From: Escherichia coli
GTDB lineage: Bacteria > Pseudomonadota > Gammaproteobacteria > Enterobacterales > Enterobacteriaceae
NCBI RefSeq assembly: GCF_003334315.1
Contig: NZ_QOWR01000007.1
DNA length: 64,000 nucleotides
Strand: one strand, 5' to 3'
Position numbers and translations under genes: made by a program. Numbering within the stretch: the stretch's first letter is position 1; each line of letters starts with the position of its first letter. The notes below the pieces were generated by a model. It saw only the letters and a program-made list of their open reading frames with translations. It did no database searches and was not told the origin of the DNA. Shown piece after piece: positions 27,090 to 28,377 of the stretch.

Positions 27090-27830
27090 ATGTTAGATCA
27101 AGTATGCCAGCTTGCACGGAATGCAGGCGATGCCATTATGCAGGTCTACGACGGGACGAAACCGATGGACGTCGTCAGCAAAGCGGACAATTCTCCGGTA
27201 ACGGCAGCGGATATTGCCGCTCACACCGTTATCATGGACGGTTTACGTACGCTGACACCGGAGATTCCGGTCCTTTCTGAAGAAGATCCTCCCGGTTGGG
27301 AAGTCCGTCAGCACTGGCAGCGTTACTGGCTGGTGGACCCGCTGGATGGCACTAAAGAGTTTATTAAACGTAATGGCGAATTCACCGTTAACATTGCGCT
27401 CATTGACCATGGCAAACCGATTTTAGGTGTGGTGTATGCGCCGGTAATGAACGTAATGTACAGCGCGGCAGAAGGCAAGGCCTGGAAAGAAGAGTGCGGT
27501 GTGCGCAAGCAGATTCAGGTCCGCGATGCGCGCCCGCCGCTGGTGGTTATCAGCCGTTCCCATGCAGATGCGGAGCTGAAAGAGTATCTGCAACAGCTTG
27601 GCGAACATCAGACCACGTCCATCGGCTCTTCGCTGAAATTCTGCCTGGTGGCGGAAGGGCAGGCGCAGCTGTACCCGCGCTTCGGACCAACGAATATTTG
27701 GGATACCGCCGCTGGTCATGCTGTGGCTGCAGCTGCCGGAGCGCACGTTCATGACTGGCAGGGTAAACCGCTGGATTACACTCCGCGCGAGTCGTTCCTG
27801 AATCCGGGATTCAGAGTGTCTATTTATTAA
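27090..27830 (+). CDS. cysQ: 3'(2'),5'-bisphosphate nucleotidase
   Basis: 246-aa [25 protein letters not shown]...; inositol-monophosphatase family motifs ([12 protein letters not shown]). Confidence 0.95.
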
Positions 27831-28377
27831 TTAATTTATGCAGCAGGTCCATCACTTGCTGCACCTCTTCCTGTGTGAGCGCCCCGTCTTTGGCCCATTG
27901 CACGCGACCATCCTTATCCAGCACCACTACAGCGGAACTTTCTTCATCCAGCTGCCAGGCACCGCGCGCGACGCCATTGCTATCGACAATAAACTGCGAC
28001 CAGGGATAAAGCTTTTTATTACTCTCCAGACTGCTGCGCACAAACATCCCTGAACCCGGAATCGCGTCGTCGGTGTTAACAATGGTGGTGGTCTGGTAGC
28101 GATCGTGCGGTAACTTCGCTGATTTAATCGCTTCAATCAGCGTCGCGTTTTTCTCTTTTGCAGAGGTGCGACCAGCAATATGTTGCAGTACTCGCACTTT
28201 TCCCACTAACTGTGCGCTGTTCCAGGTTTTGTAGCTAAACTGATCTTTATCAAGCACCAACTCGCCTCGATCGGTAATGCCAATCGGCGGCACTCGCTGA
28301 CCGGTTTCGAACTGATGTGCGGAAGCCATCATCGGCAACAGCAGGCAGGTGAGTGCCAGAATCTTGCGTAGGGTCAT
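27820..28377 (-). CDS. ytfJ: Periplasmic protein YtfJ
   Basis: 185-aa ORF with signal peptide [20 protein letters not shown]; overlaps the cysQ 3' end by 11 bp (convergent). Confidence 0.85.

Follow-up and report, generated by a model that had tools for sequence, protein, structure and literature searches.

The convergent cysQ–ytfJ overlap of Escherichia coli, its interruption by ytfI, and a conserved palindrome within ytfJ

The cysQ and ytfJ genes of Escherichia coli run towards each other and, in the 64,000-nucleotide stretch of E. coli DNA analysed here (the window), share their last codons; in strain K-12 a further gene, ytfI, lies between them. This raises the question of which of the two arrangements is the older one, and of where the transcripts of two convergent genes might end when the space between the genes has shrunk to nothing.

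A convergent gene pair without intergenic space

Both cysQ and ytfJ are genuine, full-length genes (Table 1). In a family-model search, NF008182 matched CysQ end to end (1–246/246, 525 bits) and TIGR01626 matched YtfJ over 1–183/184 (307 bits); the name of the YtfJ family model, ytfJ_HI0045, refers to a homologue in Haemophilus, HI0045. Because both proteins match their family models from end to end, the overlap between the genes is not an artefact of ORF calling. On the cysQ side the shared segment holds two nucleotides of S244, then I245, Y246 and the stop, and on the ytfJ side it holds two nucleotides of I183, then N184, K185 and the stop. E. coli strain CP53 is 100% identical to the window over positions 27000–28500, and its NCBI PGAP annotation gives cysQ and ytfJ with the identical 11-bp overlap. 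A first-pass annotation, made from the letters of the window and its list of open reading frames, had described an 11-bp convergent overlap that leaves no room for a terminator or for ytfI; the sequence and the ORF list agree with it on each of these points, given that the intergenic space is zero and no ytfI is found between the two genes. The notion that the stops were mis-called, or that the low-complexity, AT-rich junction (TTATTAATTAATTTA) harbors a sequencing error, is already refuted, not only by the family-model matches but also by at least 1300 independent complete genomes that match a junction query at ≥99% identity and by other genera, which overlap too, with different junction sequences.

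With their opposite strands, shared 3′ ends and full-length ORFs, cysQ and ytfJ are members of the well-known class of convergent overlapping gene pairs. Like other pairs of this class, they are two real opposite-strand genes that have their last codons and stops in common over a short overlap, and nothing essential sets them apart. Convergent overlap as a class is not rare: a published count for the E. coli reference genome arrives at 75 such pairs (PMC4161906), and in the 47 kb of the window that the fetched CP53 annotation covers, 3 of 12 convergent junctions overlap (Table 1). Among these pairs, cysQ/ytfJ is nevertheless unusual in how well it is conserved across species (see below) and in being interrupted in the laboratory reference strain.

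Table 1 Features of the cysQ–ytfJ locus and other convergent overlaps, in window coordinates
Feature	Position	Strand	Basis
cysQ CDS, 3′(2′),5′-bisphosphate nucleotidase, 246 aa; TAA stop at 27828–27830	27090–27830	+	ORF list
ytfJ CDS, YtfJ family protein, 185 aa; TAG stop, read as CTA on the + strand at 27820–27822	27820–28377	−	ORF list
Stop-to-stop overlap of cysQ and ytfJ, 11 bp, CTATTTATTAA	27820–27830		Sequence reading
Insertion point of the ~1.2-kb AT-rich insert in ytfI-bearing E. coli	27831–27834		Split BLAST pieces and K-12 junction sequences
Palindrome TGCAGCAGGT-CCATC-ACTTGCTGCA, 10-bp stem, proposed cysQ 3′-end hairpin	27839–27863		Folding, RNAalifold, codon entropy
Weak 7-bp hairpin CTGAATCCGGGATTCAG in the last cysQ codons, followed by a T-rich tail	27798–27814	+	Consensus terminator scan
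C-rich, G-poor cysQ-sense read-through RNA, candidate Rho loading region	27831–27990	+	C/G ratio
TetR-family gene/ytfB convergent overlap, 17 bp	18390–18406		CP53 annotation
yjfP/ulaR convergent overlap, 4 bp	1168–1171		CP53 annotation

Ancestry of the overlap and the ytfI insertion

We compared the window with the K-12 MG1655 locus, in which cysQ ends at 2331, ytfJ ends at 3544, and the 939-bp CDS of ytfI lies between them. The first-pass annotation had given this position of ytfI in K-12 correctly, and the comparison with K-12 that it had suggested found the direct junction to be no feature of that strain. The stretch between the cysQ and ytfJ stops of K-12 measures 1212 bp and has a G+C content of 35%, against 52% for ytfJ and cysQ in a related ytfI-bearing locus (L006). 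ytfI is the only ORF of this segment and is an orphan gene; its product had no match in Pfam or NCBIfam, and a PADLOC match to Cas6b, which reached 17 bits over 40 residues only, was treated as noise. An origin of the segment from an insertion sequence or transposon was rejected, as it encodes no transposase and has no terminal inverted repeats other than chance matches in AT-rich DNA.

When the 101-bp junction query (window 27775–27875) is aligned to ytfI-bearing genomes by BLAST, it splits into two pieces, query positions 1–56 and 61–101. Homology to these genomes thus extends up to 27830 on the left side and starts again from 27835 on the right, so that the insertion point coincides exactly with the overlap. 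After the insertion, the stops of both genes stay close to their ancestral positions, and each end of the ytfI insert contributes its own hairpins. The 11-nt overlap segment recurs at both junctions of the K-12 insert, in copies that by eye share 9/11 and 8/11 positions with the form found in E. whittamii; these copies would be compatible with a short target duplication, an indication that is suggestive but weak in DNA so rich in A and T.

Of 5426 complete E. coli genomes searched with the 101-bp query, 3795 have the direct cysQ–ytfJ junction without interruption, and the ytfI segment occurs in 1605–1623 of the same 5426, including K-12, O157:H7 and O145. As the two counts sum to essentially all genomes, the presence or absence of ytfI in E. 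coli is a clean two-allele polymorphism, with the allele of the window in the majority (70%). Beyond the species, we considered 80 Enterobacteriaceae ytfJ loci, one genome per species, and located both stop codons in each. The two genes overlap in 74 of these loci (40 with 11 bp in common, 28 with 7 bp and 6 with 4 bp), and a gap separates them in only 6 of the 80. Overlapping loci span Escherichia, Citrobacter, Salmonella, Klebsiella, Raoultella, Enterobacter, Kosakonia, Kluyvera, Lelliottia and others. Because overlap prevails to this degree among the species loci, the comparison indicates that it is the ancestral state and that ytfI is a derived, horizontally acquired insertion, with K-12 as the exception. 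The lineage that gave rise to K-12, O157 and approximately 30% of E. coli received the ytfI segment precisely at the site of the overlap; in the lineage of the window it was most likely never present. The first-pass annotation had listed ytfI as absent, a wording that suggests a peculiarity of the window; the absence is real, but by the counts in both E. coli and the wider family it is K-12, not the window, that is the odd one.

One may postulate the reverse scenario, in which ytfI was present in the ancestor, as in K-12, and the gene ends came to overlap when a deletion removed it. In keeping with such a loss, ytfI is found in roughly 30% of E. coli, among them the distant K-12, O157:H7 and O145, and hence is no very recent arrival. 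The scenario is nonetheless very improbable and is effectively refuted by the outgroups, given that an equal overlap is present in Citrobacter, Salmonella, Klebsiella, Raoultella, Enterobacter, Kosakonia and other Escherichia, that the deletion would need to restore the ancestral register exactly, and that no remnants of ytfI are found at 27831–27834. The junction sequences themselves bear on the same point: beside the right-hand end of its insert, K-12 keeps the ancestral GAGCAACTT, as does E. whittamii, and this is altered in the window (the junction reads ...TTGAGCAACTT... in E. whittamii and K-12, and ...TTAATTAATTT... in the window). Since K-12 retains the ancestral form and the window has the altered one, the window allele did not arise by deletion from that of K-12.

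The long maintenance of the overlap across the family could also be taken to mean that the arrangement couples the regulation of its two genes, with convergent transcription leading to polymerase collision, or to complementary 3′ ends that are cleaved by RNase III, such that cysQ and ytfJ damp each other. Read-through in this arrangement does necessarily produce complementary RNA. We found no evidence for co-regulation or linked function of the two genes, however, and both are modestly expressed. A coupling that was required would also be difficult to reconcile with an overlap length that drifts among 4, 7 and 11 bp, or with the insertions of 71–2120 bp that are tolerated in several lineages and, in the form of ytfI, in 30% of E. 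coli. We therefore give regulatory coupling little credence.

The ytfI polymorphism is already published, and the overlap arrangement is already annotated in thousands of genomes. A study of H-NS presents ytfI as a K-12-specific, H-NS-bound insertion that is absent from SE11 and SE15 (PMC4720273, S10 Fig). This islet occupies the same locus, and the window corresponds to the state without ytfI that is given for SE11 and SE15; relative to the K-12 islet, it carries the empty-site allele. That study gives no description of the overlap, of outgroup evidence or of a hairpin, and apart from it our literature search found nothing specific on ytfJ or on the cysQ–ytfJ overlap. K-12 is no neutral reference at this locus, where its ytfI is foreign and bound by H-NS; as ytfI is a foreign insertion in K-12, a missing ytfI elsewhere should not be counted as gene loss.

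A conserved palindrome within ytfJ

The first-pass annotation had reasoned that each of the two transcripts must end inside the coding sequence of the opposing gene. This reasoning is logically sound, and on the cysQ side it is indirectly supported by a conserved and synonymously constrained hairpin within ytfJ; on the ytfJ side nothing comparable was found. The hairpin corresponds to a palindrome that is separated from the cysQ stop by 8 nt and falls within ytfJ codons V172–H180, and that reads GTGCAGCAGG-N7-CCTGCTGCAY in the ytfJ sense. In the cysQ sense it folds into a perfect 10-bp stem with a free energy of −12.4 kcal/mol on its own (z −3.9), and over the range of folds the values were −12.4 to −15.5 kcal/mol (z −3.9/−2.4). 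The RNAalifold consensus of 82 sequences has −11.3 kcal/mol, and 5 of the 9 listed stem pairs do not vary among them. A compensatory change was seen at one stem pair only (CAA/TTG in place of CAG/CTG, in 5 sequences), and the covariation term is −0.23, with the rest of the stem hardly varying. Covariation is minimal, then, and the argument for this palindrome rests on conservation and not on compensation.

This conservation extends to positions at which the YtfJ protein would permit change. Codon entropies at L178 and L179 are the lowest two among 15 conserved leucine columns (0.34 and 0.10 bits, versus 0.81–2.28 bits in the other 13); Q173 and Q174 have the lowest values among the 8 glutamine columns of ytfJ, and V172 the lowest among its 9 valine columns. 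Codon entropy is normal at V175, in the loop, and at H180, and the third base of H180 may be C or U, both of which still pair with G. The naive probability that all five stem codons are minimal within their class is ~4e-5, for a test that was devised after the hairpin had been seen. Taken together, the alignments show a palindrome that is nearly invariant across the Enterobacteriaceae with its synonymous sites included, and the synonymous sites of the stem are constrained beyond those of the rest of ytfJ, as would befit a functional RNA structure within a coding sequence.

We evaluated whether the palindrome resembles known types of transcript end. It does provide a stable, G+C-rich stem-loop shortly 3′ of the cysQ stop, which is the stem of an intrinsic terminator, but no U-tract follows, the tail being CCUCUUCCUG in the cysQ sense and AUAAAUUAAUUAAU in the ytfJ sense, and a consensus terminator scan does not call the site; it was therefore rejected as an intrinsic terminator. 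Ju et al. in 2019 reportedly used SEnd-seq to describe intrinsic and bidirectional terminators between convergent genes. The palindrome shares with the bidirectional kind a single stable stem-loop at convergent gene ends that can fold in both transcripts, although the likeness appears superficial and we do not claim membership: the hairpin lies wholly within one coding sequence, a U-tract follows it in neither sense, and for a terminator of cysQ the AT-rich tract is misplaced, since the U-rich tract of the cysQ sense (27819–27838) precedes the hairpin and reads as an A-rich tract behind the hairpin in the ytfJ sense. A bidirectional terminator was rejected on these grounds. Rfam yielded no match to a known RNA family between 27024 and 30374.

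Other possible end signals were also considered. The weak hairpin CTGAATCCGGGATTCAG in the last cysQ codons, which the consensus terminator scan did pick out, was rejected as an intrinsic terminator: it scored z +0.34 against shuffled sequences, had no consensus structure across 75 species, and coincided with no synonymous constraint. At this site other genera have CCCGG/CCGGG, and the last cysQ codons use the unusual CCC (Pro239) and CGG (Arg242). Past the cysQ stop, the C/G ratio of cysQ-sense RNA is 1.6–2.3 in 80-nt windows over the first ~160 nt, compared with the ~1.2 that a ytfJ sense C/G of 0.82 predicts for its antisense, a ratio above 1 being partly expected in any antisense strand. 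RNA in the ytfJ sense has a C/G of only 1.0–1.3 over ~260 nt past its stop, and folding, consensus structure and synonymous constraint revealed no recognizable end signal after the ytfJ stop.

The transcript that the palindrome may serve

The palindrome could in principle serve either transcript, and the pairing of its stem is of little help in deciding between them: 9.8 of 10 pairs are kept in the ytfJ sense and 9.4 of 10 in the cysQ sense, and with both senses so similar, wobble pairs do not settle the strand. Three indirect arguments favor cysQ. The first is position; in the ytfJ sense, the palindrome ends ~20 nt before the ytfJ stop, and a ytfJ transcript ending there would lack its stop codon. 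The second comes from the loci in which foreign DNA separates the two genes. A strong hairpin is present 5–15 nt after the cysQ stop in all six insertion-bearing species loci and in K-12, with z values of −2.6 to −4.4 (−3.1 in K-12; from −2.6 to −4.4 in loci L006, L008, L044, L061 and L069); the one in C. youngae arose as a duplicate of the palindrome in ytfJ, and the core of the one in Kluyvera, CAGCAGC...GCTGCTG, is related to it. The third is the intactness of the core stem in the cysQ sense, which was found in 72/75 overlapping loci versus 4/7 separated ones (Fisher p = 0.007, from a small sample and uncorrected for kinship).

One explanation for our results taken jointly, to which we assign a probability of roughly 0.7, is that the overlap is ancestral, that ytfI is a derived insertion, and that the palindrome in ytfJ defines the 3′ end of cysQ. 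According to this explanation, RNA polymerase transcribing cysQ would pass the stop and enter the antisense of ytfJ, and the hairpin at 27839–27863 would then set the mature 3′ end of the cysQ transcript. It might do so as a weak terminator of that transcript or, more likely, as a barrier to 3′–5′ exonucleases after putative Rho-dependent termination of the untranslated, C-rich RNA further downstream. For ytfJ transcripts our default guess would be Rho-dependent termination, probably within the antisense of cysQ. The more specific proposal, that the cysQ 3′-end signal is a hairpin encoded by the last codons of ytfJ, where it is held nearly invariant, and that it reappears at the cysQ stop whenever foreign DNA enters, is advanced only tentatively, at somewhat less than even odds.

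A barrier to exonucleases resembles a mechanism attributed to Dar and Sorek (2018), in which stem-loops are said to mark where Rho-terminated transcripts end, by halting the exonucleases that trim them. The likeness consists of a stable hairpin that has no U-tract, is situated shortly after a stop codon and, with the reservation about antisense strands given above, leads into untranslated RNA rich in C and poor in G; it is a resemblance in how the palindrome might work, and membership in this group of stem-loops is not claimed.

This interpretation must be weighed against the alternative that the palindrome is conserved for a reason unrelated to cysQ, which we consider unlikely. The palindrome might act in the ytfJ mRNA, through stability or ribosome pausing before the stop; it might be a protein-binding palindrome at the level of DNA; or it might merely reflect a preference for CAG, CTG and GTG, which are indeed preferred codons. 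Pairing in the ytfJ sense is at least as good as in the cysQ sense, where a U-tract is moreover missing, and K-12 retains the palindrome even though its cysQ lies 1.2 kb away. Codon preference alone fails as an explanation, however, given that other leucine, glutamine and valine codons of ytfJ vary freely in these genomes, and a role in ytfJ mRNA is at odds with the loss of the stop codon that trimming of the transcript to the hairpin would entail. The retention of the palindrome in K-12 says little because the K-12 insertion is recent. The presence of a hairpin after the cysQ stop at every insertion-bearing locus also argues for a function in cysQ, as do the A·C mismatches of the ytfJ sense, which are G·U pairs in the cysQ sense, in the window and in loci L005, L013 and L031.

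A role of the hairpin in cysQ, if true, would be a clear example from nature in which the RNA end of a convergent neighbor constrains a coding sequence. The locus would then show how genes that have no intergenic space between them can still have a defined RNA end, with the signal placed inside the coding sequence of the neighbor and constraining its synonymous sites; such constraint in ytfJ would matter for codon optimization, recoding and dN/dS analyses of this gene. Of the details given here, one is new: ytfJ contains a hairpin under synonymous constraint that probably functions for cysQ, a tidy, testable example. How bacterial genes are understood to be organized is unchanged by these results.

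As a separate observation, unrelated inserts have entered the cysQ–ytfJ junction in several genera, in line with the general view that the ends of convergent genes are permissive sites for the arrival of new genes.

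Insertions at the cysQ/ytfJ junction

Unrelated insertions occupy the cysQ/ytfJ junction in E. albertii, C. youngae, two Kluyvera species and K. intermedia (L008, L044, L061, L062 and L069 among the cysQ/ytfJ loci we retrieved, in which L001 is K-12), and the junction looks like a spot of repeated insertion. The products encoded by these inserts are listed in the table below; in C. youngae the membrane protein has a tail rich in Cys, Gly and Ser, and together with the neighboring enzyme it has the appearance of a peptide-maturation pair. About 45 bp from the 3′ end of ytfJ, including the palindrome located there, are present as direct repeats on both sides of this 2.1-kb insertion, such that cysQ and ytfJ each retain a copy of the hairpin.

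YtfI, encoded at this junction in K-12, belongs to no family in Pfam or NCBIfam, and its sole match, to the PADLOC Cas6b model (17 bits over 40 residues), is probably noise. The ytfI alleles of E. coli diverge from the K-12 sequence by up to about 4-6%, which exceeds the divergence of the flanking genes.

Sequence variation around the cysQ stop

At positions 27829-27846 other Escherichia species carry TTGAGCAACTTA, whereas the window and Escherichia sp. MOD1-EC7003 carry TTAATTAATTTA, a stop-dense AT tract that differs by four clustered GC-to-AT changes. With this tract YtfJ ends in ...KLINK instead of ...KLLNK, and the stop codon of cysQ is TAA instead of TGA; a form intermediate between the two is found in E. 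coli E69 (L007).

Unusual codons near the 3′ end of cysQ (27798-27817, and homologous positions in L009-L082) create small hairpins. Pro239 is CCC in most genera, while CCG is preferred in all 12 other conserved proline columns of cysQ; Arg242 is CGG in most genera, which with the Pro239 codon yields CCCGG-CTT-CCGGG. The Escherichia end (CTG...AGA) forms a different stem of 7 bp. Across 27798-27817 and the homologous positions in L009-L082, these hairpins had no statistical support as structure.

Other features of the window

In cpdB a 20-bp sequence, GATATCAGCCCCTTCGATAC, is perfectly duplicated in tandem at 26056-26094, which splits the gene. The K-12 gene does not have this duplication, and cpdB is annotated as a frameshifted pseudogene in CP53, an E. 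coli strain identical to the window over 27000-28500. Besides cysQ and ytfJ, two convergent gene pairs overlap stop to stop (see table).

Features of the window and of the compared loci (bare coordinates refer to the window)
Feature	Location	Strand	Description
ytfI	L001 2543-3481 (K-12)		YtfI, 312 aa
E. albertii insert	L008 4556-6059		385-aa AT-rich-coded protein containing pentapeptide repeats
C. youngae ATCC 29220 insert	L044 4559-6678		TIGR04222 membrane protein and radical SAM/SPASM enzyme
C. youngae duplicated ytfJ 3′ end	L044 about 6630-6681 and about 4510-4560		
Two Kluyvera species inserts	L061 4556-5459; L062 4556-5460		ORF resembling D-Ala-D-Ala carboxypeptidase
K. intermedia insert	L069 4556-4626		71-bp spacer
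cpdB	24937..26909	-	two ORFs, 24937..26022 and 26040..26909
TetR/AcrR-family gene / ytfB	17735..18406 / 18390..19064	+ / -	convergent, 17-bp overlap, 18390-18406
yjfP / ulaR	422..1171 / 1168..1923	+ / -	convergent, 4-bp overlap, 1168-1171
ES239 sRNA	26901-27023	+	Rfam, 154 bits; cpdB-cysQ intergenic region
Mg2+ riboswitch	55906-56021		Rfam, above gathering score
RpsF leader	8505-8589		Rfam, above gathering score
naRNA4, two copies	39538-39616; 45779-45856		Rfam, above gathering score
STnc450	30375-30432		Rfam, above gathering score
ES036	30512-30554		Rfam, above gathering score
Six-gene cluster	about 10134-17553	-	between TetR-family gene and rplI

The ES239 match ends 67 nt 5′ of the cysQ start codon and may not be a separate sRNA but the 5′ leader of cysQ; the remaining Rfam elements are all expected in this chromosomal region. 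The six-gene cluster is annotated in CP53 as a 3-ketoacyl-ACP reductase, a sugar-phosphate isomerase, an enoyl-CoA hydratase, a CoA transferase, an FAD-dependent oxidoreductase and an MFS transporter. It may constitute a second difference from K-12 within the window, as K-12 presumably has only a fragment of the ytfA regulator at this position.
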